64,000 bases of DNA, from the NCBI GenBank assembly GCA_045594425.1, contig JAZNYK010000007.1:151765-215764 (forward strand), read 5' to 3'. A model generated the notes under the pieces. That model worked only from the letters and a program-made list of their open reading frames with translations. It was not told the DNA's origin and searched no databases. The stretch comes from Clostridia bacterium. GTDB lineage: Bacteria > Bacillota > Clostridia > Christensenellales > UBA1242. Position numbers and translations under genes: made by a program. Shown here piece by piece: positions 4,323 through 59,060 of the stretch; position 1 is the stretch's first letter; each line of letters starts with the position of its first letter.

Positions 4323-4344
4323 CTATTATGTTAAACATAACACC
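4323..4344 (+). repeat. degenerate copy of the GGTGTTATG-N5-CATAACACC hairpin (plus-strand orientation)
   Basis: ctATTATG-TTAAA-CATAACACC, 16 nt after the TetR stop. The right arm is exact and the left arm has 5 pairing bases. The loop TTAAA reads the same, relative to the upstream gene, as in the minus-strand copies. Confidence 0.6.
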
Positions 4345-4394
4345 GCAAACTTACCCGTTATTTTTGCAAAAACAAATTCATTTTTAACGAATGG

Positions 4395-4423
4395 TTGACA
4401 AATAAAAATTTTGAGGTTATAAT
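4395..4423 (+). promoter_or_regulatory. consensus sigma-A promoter of the glyQS T-box leader
   Basis: TTGACA (4395-4400), 17-nt spacer, TATAAT (4418-4423). Confidence 0.8.
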
Positions 4424-4429
4424 AACGCC

Positions 4430-4672
4430 ATACAATTGCGATGAAAAAGAATAGTAAACTTGAAGGTTACTTTTAGCGAGTTTCAGATGGTGCAAGTGAA
4501 ACAGCAAACACAAGTTGAAGGCGCTTTGGAGCGATTTTTTAAAAAAGTGAGTATTCCCTTTGGGAATGCTAATAAGGGTGGAACCACGGGTCTAATCTCT
4601 CGCCCCTTGCAAATTGAATAAACTATTTATTCTTTTTGCCAGCGGAATGCGAAAAGATTAGGCCTTTTGTTT
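4430..4672 (+). promoter_or_regulatory. T-box riboswitch leader, glycine specifier (GGC)
   Basis: Stem I motifs (AGCGAG..GATGGTG.AAG). Specifier loop GAAGGCGC with GGC at 4520-4522. Conserved T-box AATAAGGGTGGAACCACGGG at 4571-4590. Terminator alternative: CTAATCTCTCGC pairs with GCGAAAAGATTAG and is followed by a U-rich tract. Lies upstream of the glycyl-tRNA synthetase gene. Confidence 0.85.
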
Positions 4673-4710
4673 TGGCTTAAAAACAAAATAAATTTTTAGG
4701 AGAAACAAAT

Positions 4711-6084
4711 ATGAAAAACTTAACAATGGACAAACTCGTTTCACATTGCAAGAACACAGGTATTGTTTATCCTGGTTCAGACATCTATGATGGTCTTGCA
4801 AACACTTGGGATTACGGCCCAGTTGGTGTGGAACTCAAAAACAACATCAAAAGAGTTTGGTGGAAAAGATTCGTTCAAGAATCTGAAAACAGTTATGGTG
4901 TTGACGCTGCAATCCTTATGAACCCTAGAGTTTGGGAGGCTTCTGGACACGTTGCATCATTCACCGACCCAAAGATGGACTGCAAATCTTGTAAAGCAAG
5001 AATGAGGGCAGATAACCTTATCGACACATATTCAAAAGGCACTGTTAACCCAGATGCAATGACAAATGAAGAAATGGAAGCATACATTAACGAACATCAT
5101 GTTAACTGCCCTGTTTGTGGAAACTTTAACTGGACACCTATTCGTCAATTCCATTTGATGTTCCAAACTTCACGTGACATCACTGGTGGCGCAGATGACG
5201 TTATTTATCTTCGTCCAGAAACTGCTCAGGGTGAATTTGTTAACTTTATGAACGTTCAAAGAACAACCAGAGCAAAAGTTCCATTTGGTATCGGACAAAT
5301 CGGAAAAGCATTCAGAAATGAAATCACACCAGGAAACTTTACATTTAGAACCATTGAATTTGAACAAATGGAACACCAACTTTTCTGTAAAAACGAAGAA
5401 TCTGGTTTTGATTTCTACGCAAAATACAAAAAAGATGCCTATGATTTCCTTATTGACCTTGGATTTAACAAAGAAAGTTTGAACTATAAAGACCATGAAA
5501 AACTTGCACACTATGCAAAAGCCGCTTGTGATATTATCTTTAAATATCCATTTGGATGGAATGAACTTAATGGTATTCACTATAGAACAGACTATGATTT
5601 GTCTCGTCATCAAGAATATTCTGGAAAAAATATGCTTTATATTGACCCAGTAACAAATGAAAAATATGTTCCACACGTTGTTGAATATTCAATTGGTGCC
5701 GACAGACTTACACTTGCTGTTCTTTGTGAATTTTATGATGAAGAACAACTTGAAGGTGGCGACACAAGAATCGTTTATAGATTCCACCCTGCCATTGCAC
5801 CATACAAGGTTGCTGTTCTTCCTCTTCAAAAGAACTTATCTGAAAAAGCAAGAGAAATCTACAAAAAACTTTCAAAACACTTCATGTGCACATATGATGA
5901 ATCTGGTTCTATCGGAAAAAGATATCGCCGTCAAGACCAAATTGGAACACCTTTCTGCGTAACTATTGATTTTGACACACTTGAAAATGGAACTGTTACA
6001 GTTCGTGACAGAGATTCTATGGAACAAATCAGACTTTCAGTTGATGAACTCATCAAACACGTTGAAGACAAAATTATGTTTTAA
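4711..6084 (+). CDS. glyQS: glycine--tRNA ligase (homodimeric class II type)
   Basis: 457 aa. Begins MKNLTMDKLVSHCKNTGIVYPGSDIYDGLANTWDYGPVGVELKNNIK. Class II motifs (YLRPETAQG, GKAFRNEITP, GADR). SD AGGAGA. Confidence 0.95.
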   Translation: MKNLTMDKLVSHCKNTGIVYPGSDIYDGLANTWDYGPVGVELKNNIKRVWWKRFVQESENSYGVDAAILMNPRVWEASGHVASFTDPKMDCKSCKARMRADNLIDTYSKGTVNPDAMTNEEMEAYINEHHVNCPVCGNFNWTPIRQFHLMFQTSRDITGGADDVIYLRPETAQGEFVNFMNVQRTTRAKVPFGIGQIGKAFRNEITPGNFTFRTIEFEQMEHQLFCKNEESGFDFYAKYKKDAYDFLIDLGFNKESLNYKDHEKLAHYAKAACDIIFKYPFGWNELNGIHYRTDYDLSRHQEYSGKNMLYIDPVTNEKYVPHVVEYSIGADRLTLAVLCEFYDEEQLEGGDTRIVYRFHPAIAPYKVAVLPLQKNLSEKAREIYKKLSKHFMCTYDESGSIGKRYRRQDQIGTPFCVTIDFDTLENGTVTVRDRDSMEQIRLSVDELIKHVEDKIMF

Positions 6085-6092
6085 AACTAAAT

Positions 6093-6121
6093 AAAAACAC
6101 CGCTAAACAGCGGTGTTTTTT
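6093..6121. terminator. bidirectional intrinsic terminator between convergent glyQS and the 6126-6686 gene
   Basis: AAAAACACCGCT - AAAC - AGCGGTGTTTTT: a perfect 12-bp stem including the A/T runs. Confidence 0.85.
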
Positions 6122-6125
6122 ATTT

Positions 6126-6686
6126 TTATTGCATTTGTTGTGCAGCAGCAACTTTTTCAGAAGCAGGACTTGTTGCACCTCTTTTTAATCCAGATGGCTT
6201 TGCTTTTAATGCAAACTCATCTTCTAATTGTTTAACTCTCGCTTGCAAACTTTCAATGTGGTCTTCAAGCAATCTTGAGCGTCCAACTGGACCACCAGCA
6301 AGCATTCTATAAAGAGTATCAAACTTTTGTTTTAAATCAACATAATCAGATAGTTCAGAAAATCTAACTTCACCATCTTTTAATGTTCGCTTGTCACTTA
6401 TTTTGCCACCACGTGCAAAATATCTATCTTTTTTGAGTCTAGCAATAATTTTTGCTTTCTTTTCTGGCCATCTTTCCATAAAATCACTATTTCTTTGAGC
6501 AAGGTCTGCACTGTATGTGTAAACCTCCTCCTTAATTTCAGGATATTCTTCATTTATGTAACTTTTTATGCAGTAATGTTTCTTATTTAACCAAACGTAT
6601 TTATTGTAATCTGAAATAACAGCACGAAGTTCAATATATTCTGGACTTTGACTAGATAATTGTTCTTTTTGTTGTTCTGTTAACAT
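6126..6686 (-). CDS. hypothetical protein
   Basis: 186-aa ORF, ATG at 6684-6686, no recognisable motif. C-terminal heptad-like segment (LLEDHIESLQARVKQLEDEF). Confidence 0.65.
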   Translation of the reverse strand: MLTEQQKEQLSSQSPEYIELRAVISDYNKYVWLNKKHYCIKSYINEEYPEIKEEVYTYSADLAQRNSDFMERWPEKKAKIIARLKKDRYFARGGKISDKRTLKDGEVRFSELSDYVDLKQKFDTLYRMLAGGPVGRSRLLEDHIESLQARVKQLEDEFALKAKPSGLKRGATSPASEKVAAAQQMQ

Positions 6687-6786
6687 TGTTTTACTCCCTT
6701 TCTTTGATTGTATCTATTATACCATATTTTAACTGATTTGTAAATAGCAAATTGATATTATAACCCTCGTAACTCCTGAAATTATC

Positions 6787-6809
6787 GATGTTATGTTTAA
6801 CATAACACC
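6787..6809 (-). repeat. GGTGTTATG-N5-CATAACACC hairpin copy
   Basis: Plus strand GATGTTATG-TTTAA-CATAACACC. Starts 1 nt after the stop (6810-6812) of the upstream minus-strand gene. The flank CCTCGTAACT is shared with the 21787 copy. Confidence 0.8.
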
Positions 6810-7685
6810 CTATTTTTCAAGCAAGTTGTTATATGATTCAAGTGCACTAGAATATTCAAGTTCCAATGCTCTTAATACACTGCTTGATTCACCAACCAAT
6901 TCAGAATATTTATACCAACCTTTATAAAAATCAACTAATCTCTTTCTCAAAATTACTTCTTGAACAACGTCTTTTGTTTCTACTTCATAGATAATAGAAG
7001 AAATTAATTTTCTTTTTCTTTCTTCTAAAAGTGTTTGTGTTGAATTTGTATCTTCAGAAGATGTCATGTTTTTCAAAACTTCAAAGGTTTCTTTTCTTTG
7101 AGCATCAGTTAATGTGGCATCATTCAAAACCAATGAAACATAGGTTGCAAACGAATATTCATAAACACTGCCACCGCTCAATTGATTTCTTACAAAAGAA
7201 ACAATTGCGTGTGAGCGATTTTCATACGAGCCTTCTAAATTTAATGAATACATACATCTAACCTTTCTATTAATTAAATATGAATCGGTATTACCCACAT
7301 ATGCATACATATTCTTTGAAACATTATTTATGCTAGAATCATTTAATCTTTTGCAAAAATCATTGTAATCTTCACGAGCCATTAAAACATTTATATAATA
7401 AAGTTCTTTTTCATACTCACCAATCTCTTGTTCAAACAAAATCAAGTTGTAAAGGTCAGCAGCAGAACCACTTTTTTCATATGCTTGCAAATAACATGAC
7501 TCTTGTGCTTTTTTTAATCCAAAAAAGCCAAATATTTTGGCGTCAAATTTTGGCGCTAAAAAGAACATTGTTGAAATTACGTAAAAGAATGCAACAATAA
7601 CCACCAAAACAATTTTTGCCGATATTTTTAACGAATTTAGCCACATTTGTTTGTTTAATATTTTTTCTTTTGTAACATCCGTCAT
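6810..7685 (-). CDS. hypothetical membrane-anchored protein
   Basis: 291 aa with a single N-terminal TM (ISAKIVLVVIVAFFYVISTMFFLA). Its ATG overlaps the rpiB stop (TAATG at 7683-7687). Confidence 0.7.
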   Translation of the reverse strand: MTDVTKEKILNKQMWLNSLKISAKIVLVVIVAFFYVISTMFFLAPKFDAKIFGFFGLKKAQESCYLQAYEKSGSAADLYNLILFEQEIGEYEKELYYINVLMAREDYNDFCKRLNDSSINNVSKNMYAYVGNTDSYLINRKVRCMYSLNLEGSYENRSHAIVSFVRNQLSGGSVYEYSFATYVSLVLNDATLTDAQRKETFEVLKNMTSSEDTNSTQTLLEERKRKLISSIIYEVETKDVVQEVILRKRLVDFYKGWYKYSELVGESSSVLRALELEYSSALESYNNLLEK

Positions 7686-8167: not shown

Positions 8168-8242
8168 AAACGCTCCTTTATCACAATTAGTGTATAATTT
8201 TTTAATATCAATGTCAAACAAACAAAACAAAAAGAAGTATTG

Positions 8243-8428
8243 CTACTTCTTTTTTGCTTTAGAGTAATTTAATTGTTTTTTCAAAGAAATAATCTCACGT
8301 TTAAGTGATTCCATATCCCTGCGTGCAACAGATAGCAACCTGTCTTTTTCTTCAAGAAGGTCATCAACATAATCTCTGTCATAACCACGAAAAGACATTT
8401 TCATTTCACTTTCATCAAAATCTCTCAT
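8243..8428 (-). CDS. short DivIVA-domain protein
   Basis: 61 aa. FRGYDRDYVDDLLEE matches the DivIVA N-terminal signature (FRGYD..EVD.FLD) and is followed by a coiled coil. SD GGAG. Confidence 0.75.
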   Translation of the reverse strand: MRDFDESEMKMSFRGYDRDYVDDLLEEKDRLLSVARRDMESLKREIISLKKQLNYSKAKKK

Positions 8429-10048: not shown

Positions 10049-11934
<1,886 letters not shown>

Positions 11935-21786: not shown

Positions 21787-21809
21787 GGTGTTATGTTTCG
21801 CATAACACC
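21787..21809 (-). repeat. GGTGTTATG-N5-CATAACACC hairpin copy (perfect arms)
   Basis: Plus strand GGTGTTATG-TTTCG-CATAACACC, 10 nt after the stop of the Rsm22-like gene. On the minus strand it is followed by TTATTTTATTTGAAGTTACGAGG. Confidence 0.85.
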
Positions 21810-21819: not shown

Positions 21820-22755
21820 CTAAATCAAATCATTGATTCTAGACTTTTTTGCTTTTTTAAATTCTTCTTTATTCTTTTTTGTATAAGCACATTTATTCAC
21901 TCCTTGTGGCGTGCATAAAACAAGTTCAACATTGTTCTCTTTTATTATTGGTCTTCTTATTATTCTTTGATAAGTGTTATCAAAACTATTTTTTTGTATT
22001 AATAAGTAAAAATATTTTTCATCTTCATATGACAAACTTCCAGACTTTGCAAGTTTGTGAAGTGAAGACCTTTCCACCCTAGCATAAAACTGACAATAGT
22101 CATTAACTAGCCCACACTTTTTGCTCATGCAAGGAGCAACAACATGATAACCTTTATTTTCAATATGTTTTTTTACCTTCATCATATTTTCATAGGTTCT
22201 TGGTGTTCCAGTATCAATAATAAGCAAACTATCGTTTGTTAAACTCAAAAGTTTATCAACAGCACAAATGCGGTCAGATTCAGTCATTTCAGAAAGCACA
22301 TAACTTGTTAAAACCAAATCAAACTTTTCGTTAGACACAAATTTTAAACAATCTTCTTTTGTCACATCAACACTATTTTCAGTTAGCATTTTAAAAACAT
22401 CAATCATGTTCTTTTCACGTTCAACAAGTGTAATATCAAGAGTGCTATCAATATCTTTTAATGCAAAATATCCTGCGCCAGTTCCACTGCCCATATCAAT
22501 CACTGTTTGCACATTATTTAGATATCCTTGTTTTACCAGAGAAGACACCAATGTGTAAACAACGGAGTATGTTGCAGGCATTCTTGATATTGCATATAAC
22601 ACACCATCTTCTCTTTTTTCAACAAGCGACTTACTTTGACCAGTTTGATTTTTATATTTATCAGTCATTTGCTTTTGCGTTTCAGTTAGTGTTTTTTTGT
22701 TTAAACTAGAATAAAGTGCATTTATTTTTTCTTGTAAATTTTGAGGCAAAATCAT
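21820..22755 (-). CDS. Rsm22-like class I SAM-dependent methyltransferase
   Basis: 311 aa. RMPATYSVVYTLV and SAM motif VIDMGSGTGAGYFAL, plus a C-terminal Cys cluster (APCMSKKCGLVNDYCQF), as in the Rsm22/small-subunit methyltransferase family. Confidence 0.7.
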   Translation of the reverse strand: MILPQNLQEKINALYSSLNKKTLTETQKQMTDKYKNQTGQSKSLVEKREDGVLYAISRMPATYSVVYTLVSSLVKQGYLNNVQTVIDMGSGTGAGYFALKDIDSTLDITLVEREKNMIDVFKMLTENSVDVTKEDCLKFVSNEKFDLVLTSYVLSEMTESDRICAVDKLLSLTNDSLLIIDTGTPRTYENMMKVKKHIENKGYHVVAPCMSKKCGLVNDYCQFYARVERSSLHKLAKSGSLSYEDEKYFYLLIQKNSFDNTYQRIIRRPIIKENNVELVLCTPQGVNKCAYTKKNKEEFKKAKKSRINDLI

Positions 22756-22765
22756 ATATTCTCCA

Positions 22766-22788
22766 TGTGTTATGTTTCACATAACACC
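22766..22788 (-). repeat. GGTGTTATG-N5-CATAACACC hairpin copy abutting an SD
   Basis: Plus strand TGTGTTATG-TTTCA-CATAACACC. On the minus strand the 3' arm ends 1 nt before the GGAG (22761-22764) of the Rsm22-like gene. No T-tract follows. Confidence 0.8.
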
Positions 22789-22851
22789 CCAAATTTTCTA
22801 GATTTACATTAAATAAAAGGGGTTAATTTCAAAATCAACCCCTCACATTAA

Positions 22852-26275: not shown

Positions 26276-26546
26276 GTGCTAGGCTAAATGGGGAGCCAGT
26301 AGTGCCCTGTAACCTGAGATCTACTATAGCAGGATTGACCGCACTTTTAGGGATATGGTATGGAAGGTTGCGTTAAGCAAGCGATGTTGATAACAAGGTC
26401 TTAAGCAACAAAACTTTGTGAACCGTGTCAGAGCCTGACCGCAGCAGCACTAAGCAAATCATTTTGTGTGCCTTGAGGTTGCTTTGAAGTAGTTGGCTAC
26501 TTAATTTCCACTTCGGTGCTGTATAACAACAAGTGTGCCTAGCACT
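26276..26546 (+). ncRNA. ffs: signal recognition particle RNA, long Bacillus type with Alu domain
   Basis: 5' GTGCTAGGC pairs with 3' GCCTAGCAC (26537-26545), followed by a T9 run. GGGGAGCCAGTAGTGCCCTGTAACC...CTATAGCAGG and GAACCGTGTCAGAGCCTGACCGCAGCAGCACTAAG parallel the B. subtilis scRNA Alu and domain IV segments. Confidence 0.85.
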
Positions 26547-35856: not shown

Positions 35857-35887
35857 TTAAAAAAGTGTGAGACATAGCCCACACTTG
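35857..35887 (-). terminator. intrinsic terminator after valS
   Basis: AAGTGTG (35863-35869) / CACACTT (35880-35886) with a 10-nt loop. Minus-strand T-run. Confidence 0.6.
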
Positions 35888-35938
35888 AAAAATTTAATGT
35901 AAATGCAGTAATTTCAAGGTATTATGTGTCACACAATA

Positions 35939-38548
35939 CTATGAAATTGCATCCAATTTTGTTTTTAATGAAGCAAGTAACTCTTCATTTTTTGCAAGTT
36001 TTTCTTTTTCAGATGCAACAAGTGCTTCTGGTGCTTTTGCAACAAAGTTTGGATTGTTTAACATCTTGTTGCTTCTTTCAATTTCAAAACTTACCTTTTC
36101 GATATCCTTAACAAGGATTGCTTTTTGTGTTTCAACGTCAACAACTTCTTCAACCAAAACAAATTCACCAACACCAGTAACCAATGTTTTGCCTTCAACA
36201 GTTTCAAATTTCAAATTGATATTTGCCATTTTTTCAATAACTGCCTTATGGGTTTTTGCAAACACAGTTTCTTTTGTGGCAAAGTCAACTTTATCAGAAG
36301 ACTTCTTTCCTGCATCAAGTTTAAACTTTCTGATTGCAACAATCAAATTAACAAGTTCTTCAGTTTCTGATGCATCCTTTTCATACTTTTTGAATTTTGA
36401 AGTGTCATCAATTTGTGAAATCATGATATCTTCATCTTTTGAAACAAAGTCCATTCTTTCATAGATATAACTTGTAACATATGGAATAAATGGATGTAGC
36501 AACTTAAGCACTCCACTAAATGCATAAGCCAAAACGCTAACCATTTTTTGTTTGCTTTCACCACCTTCAAAAATTGCAGGTTTAGAAAGTTCAATAGCCC
36601 AGTCGCAGAACACATCAAGTGTAAACGAAACAATATTTGTAAGCGCAACACCAACATCAAACTTGTCAAGATTTTTTGTTACAGCATTTGTGATTTCATT
36701 AAGTTTAAACAAAATCCATTTTTGCACGCCGTCAAGTTCAATTTTGTTAATATCAAGCATTTCAATGCCTTCTTGGTGCATTGAAATAAATTTGCTAGCG
36801 TTCCAAACCTTGTTAATAAAAGTTCTTGCGTCATCAACCTTGTTTTGGCTGAATCTTGTATCCATGCCCATAGACATATCTTTAACAAGCGCAACACGAA
36901 GAGTGTCAGCACCATATTCTTTAACAATATCTAGAGGGTCAATACCATTTCCAAGGCTCTTGCTCATTTTTCTGCCTTGAGCGTCACGAACCAAACCATG
37001 AATCAAACAGTTTGTAAATGGAACATTTCCATTAGATTCAATGCCCATATAAACCATTTTTGTAACCCATTGAGTCAAAATATCAAATCCAGTAACAAGA
37101 ACTGTTGTTGGATAGAAATAGTCAATATCTGGGTTCTTTTCTGGCCAACCAAGAGTTGTTACTGGCCAAAGCGCTGATGAGAACCAAGTGTCTAATACAT
37201 CTGGGTCTTGCCAAACTTTGTGTGAGCCACATTTGTCACAAACTTCAACTTTTGTTTTTGAAGCCATAACATTTTTACATTCATCACAATAATAAATTGG
37301 AATTCTGTGACCTGTCCAAATTTGACGAGAGATGCACCAATCACGAATATTTCTAAGCCAATGGAAATAGTTCTTTTCAAATCTCTTTGGATGAATCTTT
37401 AAAGTTCCGTCTTCCACACATTTGATTGCTGGTTTAACAAGTTCTGTCATAGCAACAAACCATTGTTCTGTAATCATAGGTTCGATTGCTGTGTGACATC
37501 TTTCACAATGTCCAACAGAGTGTGTGTATGGTTCAACTTTTTCTAAATCACCATTCTTTTTAAGTTCTTCAACCAACTTTGCTCTAGCATCCAAAATGCT
37601 CAAACCTTTGAAATTATCACCTGTTAAATCTGTCATAACGCCATCTTTTGAGATAACTTCAAGAATGTCAAGATTGTGTCTTTTTCCCACTTGATAGTCA
37701 TTAGGGTCATGTGCTGGAGTGATTTTAACCATACCAGTTCCGAACTCTTTTTCAACATAACTATCTGCAATAATTGGAATTTCTCTGTTAGCCACAGGAA
37801 TGATTACCTTTTTGCCAACAATGTTTGTATATCTTTCATCTTCTGGATTAACAGCAACTGCTGTATCACCAAATAATGTTTCTGGTCTTGTTGTTGCAAC
37901 AGTAATATGTCCGCTGCCATCAGCAAACTTATACTTAATGTGCCACATTGAACCTGCATCATCTGAATAAACAACTTCATCATCAGAGATAACCGATTTG
38001 CAATGAACACACCAGTTTGTTTCTCTGCTTCCACGATAAATATAACCTTTTTTATAAAGACGAATAAACGCTTCTAAAACTGCGTTTGTGCTCTTTTCGT
38101 CCATAGTAAAACGATATCTATCCCAATCAGCAGAAAAGCCCATTTTTTTGAACTGATTAATAATTGCGTTTCCGTATTGGTCATACCAAGCCCACGCCTC
38201 TTTATCAAACTCTTCTCTGCCAATTGATTCTTTTGTTTTGCCTTCACTAGCAAGTTTTTCAACAATTTTATGTTCCGTTGCAAGAGCAGCATGGTCTGTT
38301 CCTGGAAGCCAAAGGGCTTCAAAACCTTTCATTCTTTTGTATCTAATCAAAATATCTTGCAATGTCATATCAAGACCATGTCCGATATGAGCCTTGCTTG
38401 TAACGTTTGGTGGAGGCATAACAATTGTAAATGGTTTTTTGTCTTTATTTACTTTTGCTTTAAAATAGCCTTTTTCTTCCCAAATCTTATATATTTTTTC
38501 TTCAAAACTCTGAGGTGCAAATGCTCCCTCGTTTTTCATCATAGTCAT
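35939..38548 (-). CDS. valS: valine--tRNA ligase
   Basis: 869 aa. Class I motifs (PPPNVTSKAHIGH = HIGH, KMSKSLGN = KMSKS) and a C-terminal coiled coil. SD AGGAGA. No T-box in the 73-nt upstream gap. Confidence 0.95.
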   Translation of the reverse strand: MTMMKNEGAFAPQSFEEKIYKIWEEKGYFKAKVNKDKKPFTIVMPPPNVTSKAHIGHGLDMTLQDILIRYKRMKGFEALWLPGTDHAALATEHKIVEKLASEGKTKESIGREEFDKEAWAWYDQYGNAIINQFKKMGFSADWDRYRFTMDEKSTNAVLEAFIRLYKKGYIYRGSRETNWCVHCKSVISDDEVVYSDDAGSMWHIKYKFADGSGHITVATTRPETLFGDTAVAVNPEDERYTNIVGKKVIIPVANREIPIIADSYVEKEFGTGMVKITPAHDPNDYQVGKRHNLDILEVISKDGVMTDLTGDNFKGLSILDARAKLVEELKKNGDLEKVEPYTHSVGHCERCHTAIEPMITEQWFVAMTELVKPAIKCVEDGTLKIHPKRFEKNYFHWLRNIRDWCISRQIWTGHRIPIYYCDECKNVMASKTKVEVCDKCGSHKVWQDPDVLDTWFSSALWPVTTLGWPEKNPDIDYFYPTTVLVTGFDILTQWVTKMVYMGIESNGNVPFTNCLIHGLVRDAQGRKMSKSLGNGIDPLDIVKEYGADTLRVALVKDMSMGMDTRFSQNKVDDARTFINKVWNASKFISMHQEGIEMLDINKIELDGVQKWILFKLNEITNAVTKNLDKFDVGVALTNIVSFTLDVFCDWAIELSKPAIFEGGESKQKMVSVLAYAFSGVLKLLHPFIPYVTSYIYERMDFVSKDEDIMISQIDDTSKFKKYEKDASETEELVNLIVAIRKFKLDAGKKSSDKVDFATKETVFAKTHKAVIEKMANINLKFETVEGKTLVTGVGEFVLVEEVVDVETQKAILVKDIEKVSFEIERSNKMLNNPNFVAKAPEALVASEKEKLAKNEELLASLKTKLDAIS

Positions 38549-42387: not shown

Positions 42388-43208
42388 AAAGAATTGTCAT
42401 AAAAAAATTAAAAAATCAAGGGTCTATTGAACACAAGAAGTTCATTAGAAAAGAAAAAACCAAAACTTTTTTTGTTCACTTTTTTCAAGTATTAATTTTA
42501 TTTGCACTTGTTGGTTTATGGGAACTGGTTGCCTATAAAAATTGGGTTGACCCATTTATAATATCCTCACCATCTAGAGTTGTTAAACAAATCATTGACT
42601 TATATGAAAACAACACATTGTTTACACACATTTTAACAACATTAAATGAAACTGTGCTGGCGTTTATTTTAAGCACAATTATTGGTTTTGCAATTGCTGT
42701 GCTGTTTTATTTGATAACACCATTAAGACGAGTGTTTGAACCGTATCTTGTGGTTTTGAACAGTTTGCCAAAAATTGCTTTGGGCCCATTAATCATTATT
42801 TGGGTTGGAATTGGAACAAAAGCAATTGTAACTATGGGAATTTTGATTTGTGTAGTAATCACAACAATCAACCTACTCAATGGATATTTAGGAGTATCAG
42901 ATGAAAAAATAATGCTGCTAAAATCTATGGGTGCTAACAAATTTCAAATCATGACCAAACTTGTTTTCCCTGCGACACTTCCAAATTTTGTTGCGACTTT
43001 AAAAATTAATTTAGGTATGGCTTGGGTTGGCGTTATCATGGGAGAATATCTTTCAAGTAAGGCTGGTTTAGGATATCTTTTAGTGTATGGCGGACAGGTT
43101 TTTAAACTTGACCTTGTTATGGCTGCAATCGTTATACTCTGTATTTTATCGGGTGTTATGTATGGCATAATATCTATTTTTGAACGAATAATCATAAAAA
43201 AAAGATGA
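42384..43208 (+). CDS. ABC transporter permease (NitT/TauT family)
   Basis: ATG 42384 overlaps the upstream TGA (ATGA). Six hydrophobic segments and an EAA-like loop (SMGANKFQIMTKLVFPATLP). Confidence 0.85.
   Translation: MKRIVIKKLKNQGSIEHKKFIRKEKTKTFFVHFFQVLILFALVGLWELVAYKNWVDPFIISSPSRVVKQIIDLYENNTLFTHILTTLNETVLAFILSTIIGFAIAVLFYLITPLRRVFEPYLVVLNSLPKIALGPLIIIWVGIGTKAIVTMGILICVVITTINLLNGYLGVSDEKIMLLKSMGANKFQIMTKLVFPATLPNFVATLKINLGMAWVGVIMGEYLSSKAGLGYLLVYGGQVFKLDLVMAAIVILCILSGVMYGIISIFERIIIKKR
43151..43173 (+). repeat. partial in-CDS copy of the hairpin word
   Basis: GGTGTTATG-TATGG-CATAATATC inside the permease gene, 35 nt before its stop. The left arm is exact and the right arm matches 7 of 9. 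Confidence 0.4.
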
Positions 43209-44808: not shown

Positions 44809-44909
44809 TATTTCACTTCCTTTACTAGACAATAGTATATCATATCAATTTGTATTAAACAAATAAAATTTACATTGATAAAAATAATTAATTTTTGTTG
44901 CGAAATATA

Positions 44910-44932
44910 TGTGCTATGTTTTGCATAACACC
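44910..44932 (-). repeat. GGTGTTATG-N5-CATAACACC hairpin copy (one arm diverged)
   Basis: Plus strand TGTGCTATG-TTTTG-CATAACACC. Lies downstream of the pfkA terminator and upstream of the MBL gene. Confidence 0.65.
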
Positions 44933-44976
44933 TTTCAAATTCAGCATCTACGTCAAAATTTTAAAAAATTTACACA

Positions 44977-45002
44977 TAAAAAAGAGTGCTGTTAGCACTC
45001 TC
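44977..45002 (-). terminator. intrinsic terminator after pfkA
   Basis: AGAGTGCT (44983-44990), loop GTT, AGCACTCT (44994-45001). Minus-strand T-run. Confidence 0.8.
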
Positions 45003-45010: not shown

Positions 45011-45967
45011 TTAGAAACTTAATCTTTGAGCCAAAACATAGAGGTCCATATTAAACTTTCTTGTTCCATGCAAAGCATCTTCAATTGAAACAAAAATAAT
45101 TTTTCCACTTCTATAACCAACTGCCCCACAAGCACCTTGCATAAGCATATCAACAGCCTTTGCACCACAACGTGTTGCAAGGTTTCTATCAAATGCTGAT
45201 GGGTCACCACCTCTTTGAACATGTCCTAAAATAACTGACCTGCATTCAATGCCACTTTTAACTTGAATCATTTTTGCAAGGTCGTTAGGGTCACACACGT
45301 GTTCAGACAAAACAATAATGCTACATTCTTTTTTGTGTTTCTTTGCTTCATTAAGTTTGTGACAAACATCATCAATGCTCCACTTTACTTCAGGAACCAA
45401 AATAACATCGGCACCTGCAGCAAGACCAGCATTTAATGCAACATCACCGCATCCTGCACCCATAACTTCAACAATAGTAACTCTATCATGAGATACAGAT
45501 GTGTCACGAACGTTGTTAACCAAATCAATAACAGTGTTTACTGCTGTATCAAAACCAAGAGTATAGTCTGTATAATACAAGTTATTATCGATTGTTCCCG
45601 GAACACAAGCAATGGCAATTCCATGTTTAGAAAGTTCTCTTGCACCTCTAAACGAACCATCGCCACCAATAACAACCAAACCTTCAATACCTCTCTTTTT
45701 TAGGTTTTCTGCGGCTTTTGCAACGCCTTCAGCAGTCATAAATTCTTTGCATCTAGCAGTTTTTAAAACAGTTCCACCAACTTGAATAATGTTACCAACG
45801 CTTCTTTCGGTCATAAGTTTAATTTCATCTTCAATTAAACCAGAATAACCACGCATAACACCATAAACTTTCAAACCTTGTGAAATTCCATATCTAACAA
45901 CTGAACGAATACAAGCATTCATGCCTGGGCAATCGCCACCACTAGTTAAAACAGCAATACTTTTCAT
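45011..45967 (-). CDS. pfkA: ATP-dependent 6-phosphofructokinase
   Basis: MKSIAVLTSGGDCPGMNA..., GGDGS, TIDND-like PGTIDNN, 318 aa. SD AAGGAG. Confidence 0.95.
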   Translation of the reverse strand: MKSIAVLTSGGDCPGMNACIRSVVRYGISQGLKVYGVMRGYSGLIEDEIKLMTERSVGNIIQVGGTVLKTARCKEFMTAEGVAKAAENLKKRGIEGLVVIGGDGSFRGARELSKHGIAIACVPGTIDNNLYYTDYTLGFDTAVNTVIDLVNNVRDTSVSHDRVTIVEVMGAGCGDVALNAGLAAGADVILVPEVKWSIDDVCHKLNEAKKHKKECSIIVLSEHVCDPNDLAKMIQVKSGIECRSVILGHVQRGGDPSAFDRNLATRCGAKAVDMLMQGACGAVGYRSGKIIFVSIEDALHGTRKFNMDLYVLAQRLSF

Positions 45968-53326: not shown

Positions 53327-54475
53327 TTAACTATCAAAAACATCTCGAAGATTGTCAATTTCTGTTTTTGTTAAAAATACATTATTTACCTTGCAATTTG
53401 CGATATTTTCAGGTGTTATGTCTTGCATAACACCTTGTTTGATTGCAACATTTTCAATGTTTTTAACCGAAAACAAACCCACATCAACCACTTTTTTTTG
53501 CATATAATCAGATGTTAAAAATTTTGCAAATTCTTGTTTATAAAAATTTTTTACATCACTTTCACCTTTTGCCATAAACATAAACTGCACTAAATCAGTG
53601 TATTTTGTAAGCGGTTGATATATAACATCAGAAACTTTTCCATTAACTTCTCTATTTTTCATTCTAAAAACATCTCTTTGCGTTCCTAAAAGCATAACAC
53701 TTTCACTAGCAACAAATCTGCAATATGCTGAATAACTGGAACTCTTTATATTTTGAGCGTTAAATGATTTTTCTGAAACCGACAACTTCTTATTTTCATT
53801 ATATGATGCAATTGCCATTTGAGGCACCAAGTATTTCCCCATACCAAAATCTAAAGAATATACTGTTTTCGTTTTCTTTTTGCTTTCAACTTCATATCCA
53901 TGCTCAAGCGCACTTTCAAGTAAGTTTATTTCATCACCAACAACTTTTGCCTTTTGTAAGTTTAATTTTGTTGAAATCAAATAATAAAAACCCGCACACC
54001 ATGAAACACCCAATTGCTCACCCTCTTGGTTTTTTCCTGCATCTAAAAAGTTTTTATAGATATCAAAAGCATTCTCATCAAAGCCCAAAAGGGTTTCTTT
54101 TATCGACACAGCCACACCATAAGAACAAGAAAACATATCTGGCAATTGCCCATCGTTTATCATATTCAAACATTCATTTTCAGTCACATTTCTAACAAGC
54201 ACATAAAGCCCCTTGTTCTTTTCTTGGAATTTTTTAGCAGCAACATTAAGCAAATTAGTTTTTGAAACAGTCCCACTTTCAAACGTATCAATGTTCCACA
54301 CCTCAATAATCCCTTGATATTTGCTTTTTGCACCCACAAAAACATTATAAATAAGTTCAGCATTCCCATCTGAACCCATACCAACAAAAGGCAAAAACAC
54401 AAGTAAAACAATCGCTAACAAACCTGATATAATGCGTTTAAAAACAAAACTTAACTTGAACCTAAATTTTTTCAT
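53327..54475 (-). CDS. hypothetical secreted/anchored protein resembling family-1 extracellular solute-binding proteins (orphan)
   Basis: 382 aa. N-terminal hydrophobic anchor. IIEVWNIDTFE ... MINDGQLPDMFSCSYG resembles the SBP_bac_1 pattern (I.VW ... G..PD.F). No adjacent permease or ATPase. Confidence 0.55.
   Translation of the reverse strand: MKKFRFKLSFVFKRIISGLLAIVLLVFLPFVGMGSDGNAELIYNVFVGAKSKYQGIIEVWNIDTFESGTVSKTNLLNVAAKKFQEKNKGLYVLVRNVTENECLNMINDGQLPDMFSCSYGVAVSIKETLLGFDENAFDIYKNFLDAGKNQEGEQLGVSWCAGFYYLISTKLNLQKAKVVGDEINLLESALEHGYEVESKKKTKTVYSLDFGMGKYLVPQMAIASYNENKKLSVSEKSFNAQNIKSSSYSAYCRFVASESVMLLGTQRDVFRMKNREVNGKVSDVIYQPLTKYTDLVQFMFMAKGESDVKNFYKQEFAKFLTSDYMQKKVVDVGLFSVKNIENVAIKQGVMQDITPENIANCKVNNVFLTKTEIDNLRDVFDS
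53412..53434 (-). repeat. perfect-arm copy of the hairpin inside a coding region
   Basis: GGTGTTATG-TCTTG-CATAACACC. On the coding strand it encodes GVMQDITP, 85 nt before the stop of the 53327-54475 gene. Confidence 0.7.
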
Positions 54476-54524: not shown

Positions 54525-54548
54525 AAAACACGCTAAACAGCGTGTTTT
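54525..54548. terminator. intrinsic terminator after uvrC
   Basis: AAAACACGCT - AAAC - AGCGTGTTTT. Overlaps the uvrC stop codon. Near-twin of the glyQS terminator. Confidence 0.8.
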
Positions 54549-56382: not shown

Positions 56383-56388
56383 AATAAA

Positions 56389-56397
56389 ATTATATCA
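56389..56397 (-). promoter_or_regulatory. extended -10 element placed for a leaderless uvrC mRNA
   Basis: Minus strand TGaTATAAT (56389-56397), followed by 6 nt (TTTATT) and the uvrC ATG at 56382. No SD. Confidence 0.55.
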
Positions 56398-56444
56398 CAA
56401 CTAAAACAAAATAAAAAGAAAAGTAACACAAATTACCTTCCTTT

Positions 56445-57449
56445 TTATTCCAGCACTTTCATAATTTTTTGAGCCTGTTCATCATTTACAACTCTTCTTA
56501 AACCTTTACCCATGATTGCTTCGTAATAATCAACATCAAAAACATCACCCATAACTCTTTTCATGGCTCTAAAAAGTTTTTCAATAGCAGCCGCACAAAA
56601 TGTTCGGTTAATTTCTTCAAATTCAGCAAATTCAGACTTAACACCAAGTTCCTTTGCTCTTTTTCCAAGATTGCCAAATGAAGCATTGTTCTTAAACAAA
56701 ATCATTAATCTTGTTATAACAAAACGCTCAACTTCAACGCCTGAAAAATAAGGGCTATCACCACGTCTGCTCATATGATTATCAATAATCATCAAATGAT
56801 TTAAATCTGAAATAACGTTTTTAGCATGAATATCTGGAGTGCTAACTCTGCCTTCCAAAAACATATTTTGCAAACTTAAAACAAAGTTTTCCAAAACACT
56901 ATCAGGCATAGCCTCGATAGAAATATTCACATTCATAAAATCACGAATATATTCTCTTGCAATTTCTTTAAAATCCCCCATGTGTTTTTGCGGTGTTTTT
57001 AATGCATGAGAAAATTGTTTTAATGTAAAACGGTCTTGAACCAAAGTATAAATGTCTTCTAAGTGTGTATAAAACAATTCCCTGCCTTGTGCACGCTCTT
57101 CCAAAACGTAATAATCACAGTCATAATAGTATGAACTTGAATGTTTTGATTCAAATGGTTTATGAACCCTAGGAACAGAAAGCCAAGAATATATTTTTGG
57201 TGTGCAATAACCCTTTTGTGCAAACTGGGCATTTTCATCACAATAAGCATCAAATATATCGGATAGAACATCCCATTTTTTTTCGTTATTATATTTTTTT
57301 ACAACATATTTGTCATCAATAAAATAAGCGGTTCCTTCGCAACCACTTACACTTTTGCAATTTTTTAAATGCGGAATTAATCCAAGCAAAACTCTATCGC
57401 ATTCATCTCTAGACAACTCATCGAGATTAGCAACATTCAAATTTTTCAT
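56445..57449 (-). CDS. hypothetical protein-kinase-like fold protein (paralog P1)
   Basis: 334 aa. G-loop-like SGCEGTAYF, VVKKY (Lys), hinge YYVLEERAQGRELF, catalytic-loop-like PDIHAKNV (D..H.. N at +5), IDN. Clearly paralogous to the 58003-58950 gene. SD AGAGGTG. Confidence 0.6.
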   Translation of the reverse strand: MKNLNVANLDELSRDECDRVLLGLIPHLKNCKSVSGCEGTAYFIDDKYVVKKYNNEKKWDVLSDIFDAYCDENAQFAQKGYCTPKIYSWLSVPRVHKPFESKHSSSYYYDCDYYVLEERAQGRELFYTHLEDIYTLVQDRFTLKQFSHALKTPQKHMGDFKEIAREYIRDFMNVNISIEAMPDSVLENFVLSLQNMFLEGRVSTPDIHAKNVISDLNHLMIIDNHMSRRGDSPYFSGVEVERFVITRLMILFKNNASFGNLGKRAKELGVKSEFAEFEEINRTFCAAAIEKLFRAMKRVMGDVFDVDYYEAIMGKGLRRVVNDEQAQKIMKVLE

Positions 57450-57513
57450 ATCGCCACACCTCTTGTTTAGCGTTATTACTACAACCCAAATTCAATATCA
57501 TTAGAAGGCTGAT

Positions 57514-57834
57514 TTACCCTTTCCGATATTTTTGTTGGCTTATTTGAAACAACTTTTTTTGTGAATCTTTTGTTTTTGTTAGGTCGTCAATCATTTCTTT
57601 TGTTGGTATTTGAACTTTTTGAACTGACTTTTTTTCTTTAGGTTTAAACAAGTTAGCAATACCACTTGAAGCAAAACCAACCACACCAAGCCCCACAAGT
57701 GAAAACATTGATGCAACATTCAAAACTGAAAATGGGTCTACAACCCCAACAACTGCACCCAAGGCAAAAAAACCAACAGAAAGAGCCATCATAACTTTTG
57801 CAAACTTACTTGTTTTTGAAGAGGTTTCCTTCAT
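57514..57834 (-). CDS. small hypothetical 2-TM membrane protein
   Basis: 106 aa. Strong SD AGGAGG. Two hydrophobic helices and a basic C-terminal tail. Confidence 0.7.
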   Translation of the reverse strand: MKETSSKTSKFAKVMMALSVGFFALGAVVGVVDPFSVLNVASMFSLVGLGVVGFASSGIANLFKPKEKKSVQKVQIPTKEMIDDLTKTKDSQKKLFQISQQKYRKG

Positions 57835-57957
57835 TGATTTTACCTCCTAATTTTGATTGATTTTTACAACCTAAACTTATTATAACATAACCTAGCACCA
57901 AAGTAAACACCAACAAGTAATATTTATTAAAAATTTGCGTAAATTCAAATAAAATAA

Positions 57958-57980
57958 GGTGTTATGTTTCACATAACACC
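57958..57980 (-). repeat. GGTGTTATG-N5-CATAACACC hairpin copy (perfect arms)
   Basis: Plus strand GGTGTTATG-TTTCA-CATAACACC, 22 nt after the stop of kinase-like P2. On the minus strand it is followed by TTATTTTATTTGAATTTACGC. Confidence 0.85.
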
Positions 57981-58002
57981 CCCATTATTATCACCAATAT
58001 AA

Positions 58003-58950
58003 TTATTGCATTTCAATCTCTTTGCAAATTTCTTCCGAACGTTTTTTGCCAAACACATCAGTGGATATTTTTTCACAAACACCAAAATCAAACTCACCCA
58101 ATTTATTTGAGCCAAGCAAACCAGTTGCAGTTTTAACATATCTTTTCATCGCTTCAAAACAAACATCTTCGTTTTGTTTTTTCAATCTATCCAAAACATC
58201 ATAGTTAGCGCAACAAATTCTAGAATGTTTTTTAACTCTCTCATTATCAATAAACATTAAAAACATATCTCTAATAACCATTGCCCTAACAGATTCAGGA
58301 TTATCATAATTCTCTTTTTTAAAACCCAAAAAAGCATTATCAATAGCAGTGAGTTTTTTTCCATCAAACATAATGTTTGCAGATTGAACATCCGGTGAAC
58401 TATAAAGTGATTCAACGCCCATGTTATAATCAGTCATAACAAATCTTTCAAGTTCAGAATCAGACAATGAAAGCAATGCTTGATTGGTTTCTAAATATGC
58501 TTTAATATATTCACCCACAATCATTCCAAACAAATCGGCATTCTTTGCTTTATATTTTATTGCTTTAGAAAAATCCGCTTTATCACAAAAACTTTGACAT
58601 CTTGAATATATTTTTGAAAGGTCACTTTCAAACAACATACTCCCCTTAATACGTTCTTGCAACACATAAAAATTAAATAGTTTTTTATTCCTTGATGGAA
58701 TTGCCGTCCAAGAATAAACCTTTGGAACTGCATAACCCATATCACCAAAATTTTTTATTTCTTCACAAAACCTGAAAAACATTTCAGCATCTTCATCACG
58801 AGCAAAATATTGTTTTACAACATAATCATCATCAACAAAATATACTCTTCCTTCAGTTCCAGAAAGCCAACTAAACTTTCCTAAATTTGGAACAAATGAC
58901 GCCAAAATTTTATCATTCATACTTTCACCTAAAACTAAACCTTTATCCAT
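58003..58950 (-). CDS. hypothetical protein-kinase-like fold protein (paralog P2)
   Basis: 315 aa. SGTEGRVYF, VVKQY, FYVLQERIKGSMLF, PDVQSANIMF, AIDN align with P1. The start is ambiguous: ATG 58950 (leaderless geometry) or ATG 58920 (AGGTGA 4 nt upstream). Confidence 0.6.
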   Translation of the reverse strand: MDKGLVLGESMNDKILASFVPNLGKFSWLSGTEGRVYFVDDDYVVKQYFARDEDAEMFFRFCEEIKNFGDMGYAVPKVYSWTAIPSRNKKLFNFYVLQERIKGSMLFESDLSKIYSRCQSFCDKADFSKAIKYKAKNADLFGMIVGEYIKAYLETNQALLSLSDSELERFVMTDYNMGVESLYSSPDVQSANIMFDGKKLTAIDNAFLGFKKENYDNPESVRAMVIRDMFLMFIDNERVKKHSRICCANYDVLDRLKKQNEDVCFEAMKRYVKTATGLLGSNKLGEFDFGVCEKISTDVFGKKRSEEICKEIEMQ

Positions 58951-58958
58951 ATATAGTT

Positions 58959-58988
58959 ATTATATCATATATATTATATATGTGTAAA
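58959..58988 (-). promoter_or_regulatory. candidate promoter of kinase-like P2
   Basis: Minus strand TTTACA (58983-58988), 18-nt spacer, TATAAT (58959-58964), 8 nt before the ATG at 58950. Confidence 0.5.
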
Positions 58989-59037
58989 TACAAAATCAAA
59001 ATTTAATATAAATTTAACGTAAATGCGGAAAATAAAA

Positions 59038-59060
59038 GGTGTTATGTTTAACATAACACC
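59038..59060 (-). repeat. GGTGTTATG-N5-CATAACACC hairpin copy (perfect arms)
   Basis: Plus strand GGTGTTATG-TTTAA-CATAACACC, 7 nt after the prfA stop. On the minus strand it is followed by TTTTATTTTCCGCATTTACG. Confidence 0.85.

Follow-up and report, generated by a model that had tools for sequence, protein, structure and literature searches.

A family of short palindromic repeats placed behind stop codons in uncultured Clostridia and perhaps recruited as transcription terminators

The window analysed here, a 64,000-nt stretch of a Clostridia contig, has nearly all of its genes on one strand and contains dispersed copies of a repeat of about 45 nt without coding capacity. The repeat unit consists of an A-rich stretch, a hairpin GGTGTTATG-N5-CATAACACC, a spacer of 8 nt (TTATTTTT or CCAWAATT) and an asymmetric tail, TCAGCATTTAC, at a constant offset. 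The seven copies of the original prediction were all located as described there, but the element is larger than the 23-nt hairpin which that prediction had recognized. The copies, the matches of lesser quality and one associated promoter are the following, with scores from a covariance model:

59015..59070, minus strand: complete element behind prfA; perfect hairpin at 59038-59060 with loop TTAAA, spacer TTTTATTT, tail TCCGCATTTAC at 59019-59029; 68.2 bits, listed by the terminator scan
58959..58988, minus strand: canonical promoter after the 59038 element (TTTACA, 18 nt, TG-extended TATAAT), from the promoter scan
57935..57990, minus strand: complete element behind a 315-aa gene, uncharacterised (58003..58950); perfect hairpin at 57958-57980 with loop TGAAA, spacer TTATTTTA, tail TTTGAATTTAC; 63.2 bits, terminator scan
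53389..53444, minus strand: perfect hairpin in frame inside the ORF 53327..54475; 45 bits
45854..45862, minus strand: lone half-site GGTGTTATG in the phosphofructokinase gene, encoding GVM; no partner arm
44900..44955, plus strand: element facing against transcription; hairpin 44910-44932 (2 mismatches), tail TCAGCATCTAC at 44941-44951; 47.3 bits
43152..43174, plus strand: doubtful 2-mismatch match in an ABC permease gene (peptide GVMYGII); ~22 bits, E 0.08-0.2
35895..35950, minus strand: copy of diverged sequence that overlaps the stop codon of valS; 37.2 bits, E 9e-5, terminator scan
22756..22811, plus strand: element facing against transcription; hairpin 22766-22788, spacer CCAAATTT, tail TCTAGATTTAC at 22797-22807; 51.5 bits
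21764..21819, minus strand: complete element behind the gene of an Rsm22-like methyltransferase (21820..22755); perfect hairpin at 21787-21809 with loop CGAAA, tail TTTGAAGTTAC; 60.9 bits, terminator scan
6765..6819, minus strand: element abutting the TAG stop of a 291-aa gene (6810..7685); hairpin 6787-6809 (1 mismatch), tail CAGGAGTTACG, weak T-run; 47.6 bits and fold
4300..4354, minus strand: decayed copy; 20.6 bits, E 0.19

The window contains 14 occurrences of the 9-mer arm GGTGTTATG or its complement (13 had been counted before), far above the 0.40 expected from dinucleotide shuffling (shuffle maximum 3), and the full pattern with up to 3 mismatches has 9 sites against 0 expected. Twelve of the 14 exact 9-mers sit in 9-N5-9 pairs whose partner arm is perfect or near-perfect; the others are one in the doubtful coding match and the lone half-site at 45854, which was rejected as a family member for want of a partner arm. 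Arm mismatches number 1-2 in the 6787, 22766 and 44910 copies and none in the 21787, 57958 and 59038 copies. The loop is 5 nt long in 98/98 copies, the innermost 4 bp of the stem show no variation, and the tail lies 8 nt from the hairpin in 57 aligned copies; for the 6787 element the distance is 7 nt. Of the flanking features suggested earlier, both the T-run and (G/T)TTACG are present, the latter being part of this 11-nt tail, and the stretch CCTCGTAACT is indeed common to the 6787 and 21787 copies. This enrichment, together with positions directly past stop codons, bears out the proposal of a non-random family placed at gene 3' ends.

Several of these copies have the surroundings of a transcription unit end. 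The prfA element begins 7 nt past the prfA stop codon, its RNA hairpin folds at -14.3 kcal/mol (z -4.0), and the site is filled in 13 related species. The 57958 and 21787 hairpins fold at -15.5 and -19.5 kcal/mol, respectively, RNA hairpins of the family generally giving -14 to -19 kcal/mol. Promoters similar to that after the 59038 element follow the 57958 (57879-57907) and 6787 (6716-6744) elements, all three scoring 10-11/12 matches with TG in the promoter scan. A promoter reading of the element itself was contradicted. The single mismatch of the 6787 copy is a G·U pair on the transcribed strand, and orthologous copies lie between glyS and the 291-aa gene in the related loci L012, L014, L026, L009 and L033. 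The hairpin at the valS end (35918-35940) shows 4 differences, among them pair 4 as a compensated A:T, and retains its tail; an ordinary terminator (35863-35886) follows downstream, and L093 holds the orthologous copy.

Other copies are placed differently. The 22766 element has on one side the ordinary terminator (22817-22844) of a pseudouridine synthase gene and on the other the ribosome-binding site that serves the Rsm22-like gene, with 10 nt from the hairpin end to the ATG and no T-run after the hairpin in the direction of transcription. At this site the element is found in the window, L087-L092, L042 and L007, is degenerating in L093 and L094, and is absent from L054. The 44910 element is similarly flanked by an ordinary terminator (44982-45002), that of the phosphofructokinase gene, and by a metallo-beta-lactamase-fold gene, with identical site and orientation in L013, L027, L034, L056, L058 and L002. 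Since the 22766 and 44910 copies stand behind ordinary terminators, termination cannot be the sole reason for their retention. The hairpin at 53412-53434 encodes GVMQDITP in the 3' part of its ORF, ~85 nt before the stop codon and just upstream of murB, and also has no T-run; it is kept by the orthologous genes in L028, L030 and L055, synonymous positions being conserved (GGT, GTT and ATA in 4/4). The 4322 copy faces against a TetR-family gene (3777..4307) and supplies its stop codon, a TAA within the tail; its hairpin (4322-4344, 3 mismatches) is non-folding (-3.6 kcal/mol, z -0.5). The site holds an intact copy in L033 and is empty in L026 and L009.

Among relatives, the element was found in about 35 uncultured Clostridia species represented by gut and rumen MAGs, often at orthologous spots. 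Orthologous positions are occupied in genomes whose PrfA proteins are 67-94% identical, and the element lies upstream of the Rsm22-like gene in 8/8 loci chosen without reference to the hairpin. The extrapolation to a very high copy number was not upheld, as related genomes hold 1-6 exact copies each. The check for an already described family gave no match to the element in Rfam.

The element shares its layout with ordinary intrinsic terminators, that is, a stem-loop followed by a T-run directly past stop codons, with the next promoter after it. A T-run (≥5 of 8) follows the hairpin in the direction of transcription in 55/59 copies, in either orientation of the tail; the hairpin lies a median of 7 nt from the stop codon in sense copies and 37 nt in antisense copies, and an independent terminator scan recovers 4 window copies. 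Family copies thus most likely end transcripts, as judged from these sequence features. However, ordinary terminators, both in the window (as had been claimed) and at orthologous sites, share no sequence and have no tail, and those in the same intergenic regions vary among species, whereas the arms of the family are much more conserved at the same loci; and some family copies lack the T-run.

The proposal of an RNA-level element was upheld only in part. The T-runs and the pairing favour a hairpin that forms in a single strand, the transcribed one. Where only one arm carries a transition, a G·U pair is preserved on the transcribed strand 12 times vs 2 (p=0.013), and stem pair 4 covaries (GC 86, GT 4, AC 5, AT 4; Fisher p=0.002), many of the sampled copies being orthologous and therefore not independent. 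For the outer A/T pairs of the stem, covariation does not exceed what composition would give. Strand-biased mutation could account for part of the wobble asymmetry, which also does not discriminate between RNA and single-stranded DNA of the lagging-strand template. The argument from the loop fails. Loops do read NNAAA in the gene direction in all window copies, but the window alone cannot separate transcription direction from other factors because nearly all of its genes lie on one strand, and the loops of relatives are A-rich in 28 and T-rich in 29 copies when read with transcription. At one and the same site, close relatives can carry loops that are exact reverse complements of each other; for example, the L088 ortholog of the 21787 copy carries TTTCG. 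Flip-flop inversion in the non-coding DNA of chloroplasts, which is a mutational process and not an element family, likewise replaces the loop of a hairpin by its exact reverse complement, recurrently between close relatives, and leaves stems and flanks unchanged; it is relevant here only in explaining why loop orientation is signal-free. The truly asymmetric feature is the tail, which has the direction of transcription in 21-23 copies and the opposite one in 21-28, and is conserved in both orientations.

Our assessment, held with slightly more confidence than doubt, is that the family consists of dispersed palindromes resembling SPRITE and REP elements that have been co-opted as intrinsic terminators. 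The original prediction had listed a REP- or MITE-like element among its options, and this one gives the best fit, given the empty and filled sites, the copy embedded in a coding region and the copy supplying a stop codon. The arms and fixed-offset tail shared by many unrelated sites argue for descent by copying from one source; the copies would now be old and vertically inherited, and they have kept their intergenic positions in many species of the clade. Most follow a stop codon immediately, where a transcription unit ends, and there the transcribed hairpin and U-tract most likely serve as intrinsic terminator and 3'-end hairpin, often bidirectionally, with the canonical promoter of the next gene after the 59038, 57958 and 6787 copies. 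Copies before a ribosome-binding site, inside an ORF or behind an ordinary terminator look like tolerated insertions. No transposase or nuclease genes were found in ~0.62 Mb of window and related loci, and neither a target-site duplication nor defined ends came to light, so that mobility would belong to the history of the family, as read from its sequences. The terminator role leaves the tail unexplained, and the conservation of the arms above that of ordinary terminators, the invariant inner 4 bp and 5-nt loop, and the orientation-independent tail suggest an additional sequence-specific partner or a homogenising process.

The nearest analogue is the pneumococcal SPRITE, also an AT-rich Firmicute repeat with a stem followed by a U-rich tract, flanking A-runs and T-runs, tens of copies per genome, enrichment near coding-sequence 3' ends, a lack of clear target-site duplications and a proposed co-option as terminator. 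Judged from its published description, however, SPRITE has no sequence similarity to the Clostridia element; it has an 18-bp duplex and a longer body as opposed to a 9-bp stem with a strict 5-nt loop and an asymmetric tail of 11 nt at a constant offset of 8 nt, and it occurs only in S. pneumoniae and S. mitis, whereas the Clostridia element occupies orthologous sites in ~35 species. REP/BIME/REPIN elements with their RAYT transposases (PMC2817692, PMC3116915, PMC3733652) come next: they are short extragenic palindromes just after genes, persist vertically over long times, may provide the stop codon of a flanking ORF or occasionally lie inside an ORF, and have proposed roles in termination and mRNA stability. 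They differ in host (Proteobacteria vs a low-GC Clostridia clade) and in having their conserved motif adjacent to the hairpin foot and not 8 nt away. The family thus resembles known repeats but has been retained across many species.

Whether such a system is still live, with terminator use secondary, is a different matter, and we regard it as unlikely. The single-stranded DNA hairpin with its tail 8 nt away would then be the substrate of a single-copy domesticated HUH nuclease, RAYT-like or other, encoded elsewhere in the genome, which would copy or homogenise the elements. A hairpin, a fixed spacer and a one-sided conserved motif do fit the layout of HUH substrates as known from relaxase, Rep and Y1 transposase sites. 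The conservation of the tail irrespective of transcription direction argues for recognition at the DNA level, and the invariant inner pairs and loop length exceed structural need; empty and filled sites without obvious scars, and the REP-like provision of stop codons and location in ORFs (PMC3733652), also agree. But tblastn found no Y1/RAYT homologue in the window, 61 hairpin loci and 145 kb of unbiased loci (a weak test, with approximate queries), the GTAG or CGTC tag is absent beside the hairpin, and copies are singletons and not the inverted doublets or clusters of REPINs and BIMEs. Orientation is also unbiased relative to gene direction, and so probably to replication, and copies are stable at orthologous sites across large distances. 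With a similarly low probability, a clade-specific RNA-binding factor or RNase could read the stem in transcripts, thereby promoting termination, protecting 3' ends or processing polycistronic RNA. The hairpin maintained on the transcribed strand, arms far more conserved than those of adjoining ordinary terminators, and the retention across species of T-run-less copies (before the ribosome-binding site and inside the ORF) are in line with this. It is in conflict with loops, the usual protein contact, that vary freely and flip, and with a tail conserved in both orientations although these give two different transcripts; neither an Rfam match nor a candidate protein was identified.

An operator for a dimeric dsDNA-binding regulator or nucleoid protein, with tens of sites upstream of promoters, is disfavoured and appears quite improbable. 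Conserved half-sites around a variable spacer of fixed length and orthologous intergenic conservation are the classic signature of a transcription factor site, exact copies are few per relative, and by coordinate arithmetic the sense copies of the window lie ~90-100 nt upstream of the expected transcription start of the next promoter. Position nevertheless follows the upstream stop codon and not the downstream promoter, T-runs are oriented with transcription, the strand-asymmetric wobble tolerance and pair 4 compensation are unexpected for a duplex site, adjoining genes are functionally unrelated, and L054 lost its site without intergenic rearrangement. The suggested uptake signal, with inverted pairs building up in terminators, is contradicted and very improbable. 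Inverted DUS pairs of Neisseria do form rho-independent terminators, and DUS/USS of Neisseria and Pasteurellaceae likewise place an identical arm sequence in many unrelated terminators (PMC2397512). Their unit, however, is a single 9-12-mer that is abundant alone, whereas nearly every 9-mer here is paired across a gap of exactly 5 nt, lone arms are essentially absent, and the fixed-offset tail has no counterpart among uptake signals.

Two copies had been overlooked previously, the perfect one at 53412-53434 within an ORF and the diverged one at 35918-35940, as had the doubtful match at 43152 and the half-site at 45854. The coding motif at 43152 is also present in L056 and L058, and the match is probably a coding coincidence conserved as protein.

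The hairpin arms recur in the window far beyond chance. In the 64 kb (33% GC), 14 occurrences of the 9-mer GGTGTTATG or its complement were counted, as compared with an expectation of 0.40 and a maximum of 3 in dinucleotide-preserving shuffles, and the full hairpin GGTGTTATG-N5-CATAACACC, with up to 3 mismatches allowed, has 9 sites in the window and none in the shuffles. The arm family of the original prediction is thus non-random, and all seven copies that it listed were found where it had placed them. A covariance model of the kind it had proposed (R1, built from the 57 copies of alignment A1, which combines the window and its relatives) recovers eight solid and two weak copies in the window and also finds copies in relatives. 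Almost every gene of the window, which encodes Spo0A, lies on the minus strand.

Copies of the element and partial matches in the window, named by their start
59038, solid copy, tail on the minus strand
57958, solid copy, tail on the minus strand
21787, solid copy, tail on the minus strand
6787, solid copy, tail on the minus strand
53412 (53412-53434), solid copy, tail on the minus strand; a perfect copy inside an open reading frame, missing from the original prediction
35918 (35918-35940), solid copy, tail on the minus strand; a diverged copy on the valS stop codon, also missing from it
22766, solid copy, tail on the plus strand
44910, solid copy, tail on the plus strand
4322, weak copy
43152, weak copy, a doubtful coding match; missing from it too
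45854, lone half-site, likewise missing from it

When copies from the window and relatives are aligned, the conserved unit proves to exceed 23 nt: an A-rich left side is followed by the 9-5-9 hairpin, a spacer of 8 nt (mostly TTATTTTT, at times CCAWAATT) and an 11-nt tail, TCAGCATTTAC, after which the next base is usually A or G. The tail stands at offset 8 in virtually all aligned copies and on one side only, thereby giving the palindrome a polarity. The flank (G/T)TTACG, originally placed 15-20 nt downstream, is real but is in fact part of this fixed-offset tail. The loop is exactly 5 nt long in 98 of 98 copies with at most 2 mismatches, most of these loci having been retrieved by the N5 pattern and being therefore not fully independent. 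Of the stem pairs, the innermost four (TATG/CATA) are unchanged in 98-99 of 99 copies, while pairs 1, 2, 4 and 5 vary. Lengthening of the stem by the outer A-run and T-run was rejected, because these runs pair no better than composition predicts. The same hairpin is found in a second clade (MAGs RGIG4790 and relatives; loci L045 at position 166, L052, L057, L059 and L021), where the offset is kept but the tail differs (CCATAAAA-CCTGGCGAAAAC); L045 has the tail on both sides, resulting in a palindrome of about 63 nt.

Intact copies fold as RNA with -14 to -19 kcal/mol (z of -3 to -5), and the decayed 4322 copy forms no stable stem-loop. In co-directional contexts, 55 of 59 copies have at least 5 T in the 8 nt that follow the hairpin in the direction of transcription, the exceptions being 22766, 6787 and copies in two related loci (L042 and L011). 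The tail points with transcription (sense) in 21-23 copies and against it (antisense) in 21-28, and its orientation is kept at each orthologous site. The median distance from stop codon to hairpin is 7 nt when the tail points downstream and 37 nt when it points upstream, the latter value being made up of a short gap behind the stop codon and about 20 nt for tail and spacer. An independent terminator scan of the window picks up 59038, 57958 and 21787, with a weaker call at 44910; of the about 17 convincing intergenic terminators, roughly 3-4 belong to the family. Copies 22766 and 44910 sit behind ordinary terminators and 35918 precedes one, so these three are not needed as terminators. As for the statement that ordinary terminators of the window share no sequence, none of them carries the family arms or tail, but one pair is nearly identical, at 6093-6120 and 54525-54548 (AAAACACCGCTGTTTAGCGGTGTTTT vs AAAACACGCTGTTTAGCGTGTTTT). 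Terminators of this type have no more copies in the window and only loose resemblances in related loci.

The sense copies 59038, 57958 and 6787 are each followed by a canonical promoter (TTTACA, 17-18 nt, TG-extended TATAAT), whose -35 box starts 23-30 nt past the tail. The TTTACA of the tail was itself considered as a sigma-70-type -35 box, and was rejected because no TATAAT-like hexamer is enriched at any spacing among the 57 copies. From such a box antisense copies would fire into the upstream gene, and the real promoters lie further on.

The original prediction considered it more likely that the hairpin acts at the RNA level, its main argument being the loop, which reads NNAAA in the gene direction in every copy of the window. 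Across relatives, however, loops read in the direction of transcription are A-rich in 28 cases and T-rich in 29. Behind the Rsm22-like gene the loop is CGAAA in the window (21787-21809) and TTTCG in L088, and in front of this gene it is TGAAA in the window (22766-22788) and TTTCA in L089 and L091 (all three being related loci), with arms and flanks unchanged. This exchange for the exact reverse complement at orthologous sites is a flip-flop inversion, a process known from hairpin loops of chloroplast non-coding DNA. Since loops flip between close relatives, loop asymmetry was rejected as a signal of the RNA strand and the main argument falls. What stands of the claim is that the transcript hairpin matters, and this comes from base pairing: in statistics that count orthologous copies and are hence non-independent, one-sided transitions in diverged copies leave a G·U on the transcribed strand 12 times and on the other strand only 2 times (binomial p=0.013), and stem pair 4 is GC in 86 copies, GT in 4, AC in 5 and AT in 4, with double changes in excess (Fisher p=0.002). 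In coding-region matches, 3 of 3 such one-sided changes go the same way (one in the p382 orthologue of L055; also the valS copy at 1973 of L028). The wobble asymmetry could come partly from strand-biased mutation or from hairpins in lagging-strand-template single-stranded DNA.

When one genome from each of 185,579 species was scanned for the exact pattern, 61 loci came up, almost all in about 35 uncultured Clostridia MAGs from the guts of humans, mice, rabbits and ruminants. Each of these MAGs has 1-6 exact copies, and a few matches are evident coding coincidences in unrelated bacteria. The scan of viral contigs gave 0 matches to the hairpin pattern, and plasmids and phages gave none to the element. 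The metagenome collection yielded 25 matches, of which about 10 are family-like and most are chance occurrences or unrelated repeats of high GC. Metagenome contigs of 50-70% GC (L084 at 1314-1393; L064 and L078; L065 and L067) carry the same 23-nt palindrome, in some as tandem arrays (57-nt period in L084) and in others among clusters of the words GTTATG/CATAAC; these are probably different systems that have the word in common by chance. The window's own proteins, looked up in order to obtain strain variants, have no database record. As a control for retrieval bias, eight loci that encode Rsm22-like homologues, with identities from 99% to 53%, were fetched and searched with R1. Away from the query gene, the density in these unbiased loci is about 1 copy per 23 kb vs 1 per 7 kb in the window, and a genome therefore probably holds tens to perhaps a hundred or so copies, not necessarily hundreds.

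Synteny with the window is seen in many of the 61 loci, where the element persists in matching intergenic spots:
downstream of prfA, in 13 species whose PrfA is 67-94% identical
between the phosphofructokinase and metallo-beta-lactamase-fold genes
between glyS and a convergent 291-aa gene
on either side of the Rsm22-like methyltransferase gene
at the valS stop codon

All eight unbiased loci have the copy that precedes the Rsm22-like gene, and it is degenerating only in the two most distant ones. In shared intergenic regions the upstream gene has an ordinary terminator that varies by species, whereas the adjacent family hairpin is nearly unchanged; the drifting terminator serves as an internal control and indicates constraint at the sequence level. 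Common arms and a common tail, at a fixed offset and at many unrelated sites, exclude convergence. Orthologous sites also differ by presence and absence of the element. Ahead of the Rsm22-like gene, the related locus L054 lacks the element and runs from the terminator to the ribosome-binding site, whereas eleven other genomes carry a 45-nt block there; the spacer between the TetR-family gene and glyS is filled in the window and L033 and empty in L026 and L009. The TetR-family gene (window 3777-4307) ends on a TAA within the tail in the window and L033, and ends differently in L026 and L009, which lack the element. As to a MITE, which has terminal inverted repeats like those of an insertion-sequence element and a target-site duplication, no such duplication is visible between filled and empty sites, whose sequences are much diverged, and no related insertion-sequence element was seen.

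The 53412 copy is translated as GVMQDITP, and its orthologues in L028, L030 and L055 keep GGT, GTT and ATA at synonymous positions. The peptide GVMxDITPENI together with the same post-hairpin DNA (TGAAAATATC) occurs both in the 382-aa ORF (window 53327-54475), which has no Pfam match, and in valS of two species (L002 near position 435 and L024 near position 2453; GVMTDITPENI). These valS copies may be a coding coincidence or an element patch copied into a second gene.

Rfam has no match to the element in the window at gathering thresholds, its only matches there being a T-box at 4432-4610 (plus strand), upstream of the glycyl-tRNA synthetase gene, and a large SRP RNA at 26279-26542 (plus strand). 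Permissive Rfam scans around four copies gave only chance-level matches, and a literature search by sequence returned primers only. Neither source thus links the element to a known repeat family, a link that would have spoken against the original prediction, and as far as these searches show the family is so far undescribed. Its nearest counterpart is SPRITE, a Firmicute repeat that resembles a rho-independent terminator with A and T ends, occurs in tens of copies near the 3' ends of coding sequences and has been suggested to be co-opted (PMC3049150). However, SPRITE is longer and is found only in S. pneumoniae and S. mitis (PMC3049150). Like REP sequences, the element is an extragenic palindrome, supplies stop codons and occasionally lies in ORFs (PMC3733652), but exact copies number just 1-6 per relative genome. 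REP palindromes carry a conserved GTAG or CGTC tetranucleotide at one end (PMC3733652), whereas the arms of the element start with GGTG, next to variable A- or T-rich bases, and lack either tag. Inverted doublets (REPIN) and clusters (BIME) are absent as well, all copies being single and paired ones occurring only as separate copies that flank a whole gene. RAYT genes of REP systems are typically flanked by the repeats. The RAYT/IS200-IS605 genes to which the original prediction had pointed did not turn up: a weak test, tblastn with hand-typed queries, detected no Y1, RAYT or IS200-like gene in the window and 69 related loci (about 0.62 Mb). A Y1 match in L062, a metagenome contig of 55% GC, is real but lies 3 kb from an unrelated chance hairpin. 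With tag and doublets absent and RAYT unseen, we do not class it among the REPs.

The reading with the best support is a dispersed palindrome of the SPRITE/REP kind that has been retained mostly as an intrinsic, often bidirectional terminator. The repeat would have spread in the ancestor of a clade of uncultured gut Clostridia, and its copies would have been kept mostly as intrinsic terminators at the ends of transcription units, often usable both ways; actual termination, the mode of dispersal and the reason for the sequence-level conservation are what we infer. A plain terminator does not account for the unchanging inner stem, the fixed loop length or the tail conserved in both directions, and these features leave room for a sequence-specific partner. 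Hairpin and tail might be the site of a clade-wide trans-acting factor, either a domesticated ssDNA nuclease or a terminator/RNA-processing protein, which would have preserved about 45 nt with hardly any change at tens of loci in dozens of species; the nuclease version would amount to the first REPIN-RAYT-like partnership in Clostridia, one with a novel site architecture. We put this forward tentatively, as a proposal that is rather unlikely to hold.

Taken singly, a live HUH/RAYT-like system acting at the DNA level is unlikely, as is a factor that binds or processes the RNA. A regulator of double-stranded DNA, with the palindrome as a transcription-factor operator, would fit the fixed spacer length and the conservation at orthologous sites, but stop-codon anchoring, oriented T-runs, wobble asymmetry and compensatory change speak against it, and we regard it as quite improbable. 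The suggestion of a DNA uptake signal fares worst: inverted DUS pairs are alike only in forming terminators with a common arm (PMC2397512), whereas here lone arms are essentially absent (just 1-2 of the 14 exact 9-mers in the window lack a partner) and the gap is fixed at 5 nt, making this reading extremely improbable. Other candidates were dropped for poor fit, namely XerCD/dif-like sites, integron attC, CRISPR repeats and parS/Noc/RTP sites, as well as Spo0A, WalR, NrdR, TnrA, Rex and CRP boxes and alternative-sigma promoters.

For uncultured gut and rumen Clostridia the element marks the ends of transcription units, which helps operon annotation in genomes available only from metagenomes. 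A repeat that stays near-constant across many species while terminators a few bases off drift freely is a clean contrast, and together with the direction-blind conserved tail it makes the question of whether a protein reads the repeats directly testable. If such a partner exists, REP/RAYT-type partnerships or protein-assisted termination would reach a new phylum-level setting; if not, the family is a tidy example of a co-opted terminator repeat.

Paralogous genes coding for 315-334 aa, without a Pfam match, lie at window 56445-57449 and 58003-58950, separated by a small gene, and also in L023, L028, L032 and L049. They are arranged in tandem behind prfA in several relatives, with three copies in L028. 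At the start of the 315-aa gene (window 58920-58950), the predicted promoter stops 9 nt short of the listed ATG (58950), so that translation probably begins at an ATG located 30 nt deeper in the gene, after GGAGA. In several cases each paralogue copy is preceded by one module of hairpin, tail, 27 nt and promoter, which suggests that the module was duplicated along with the gene.
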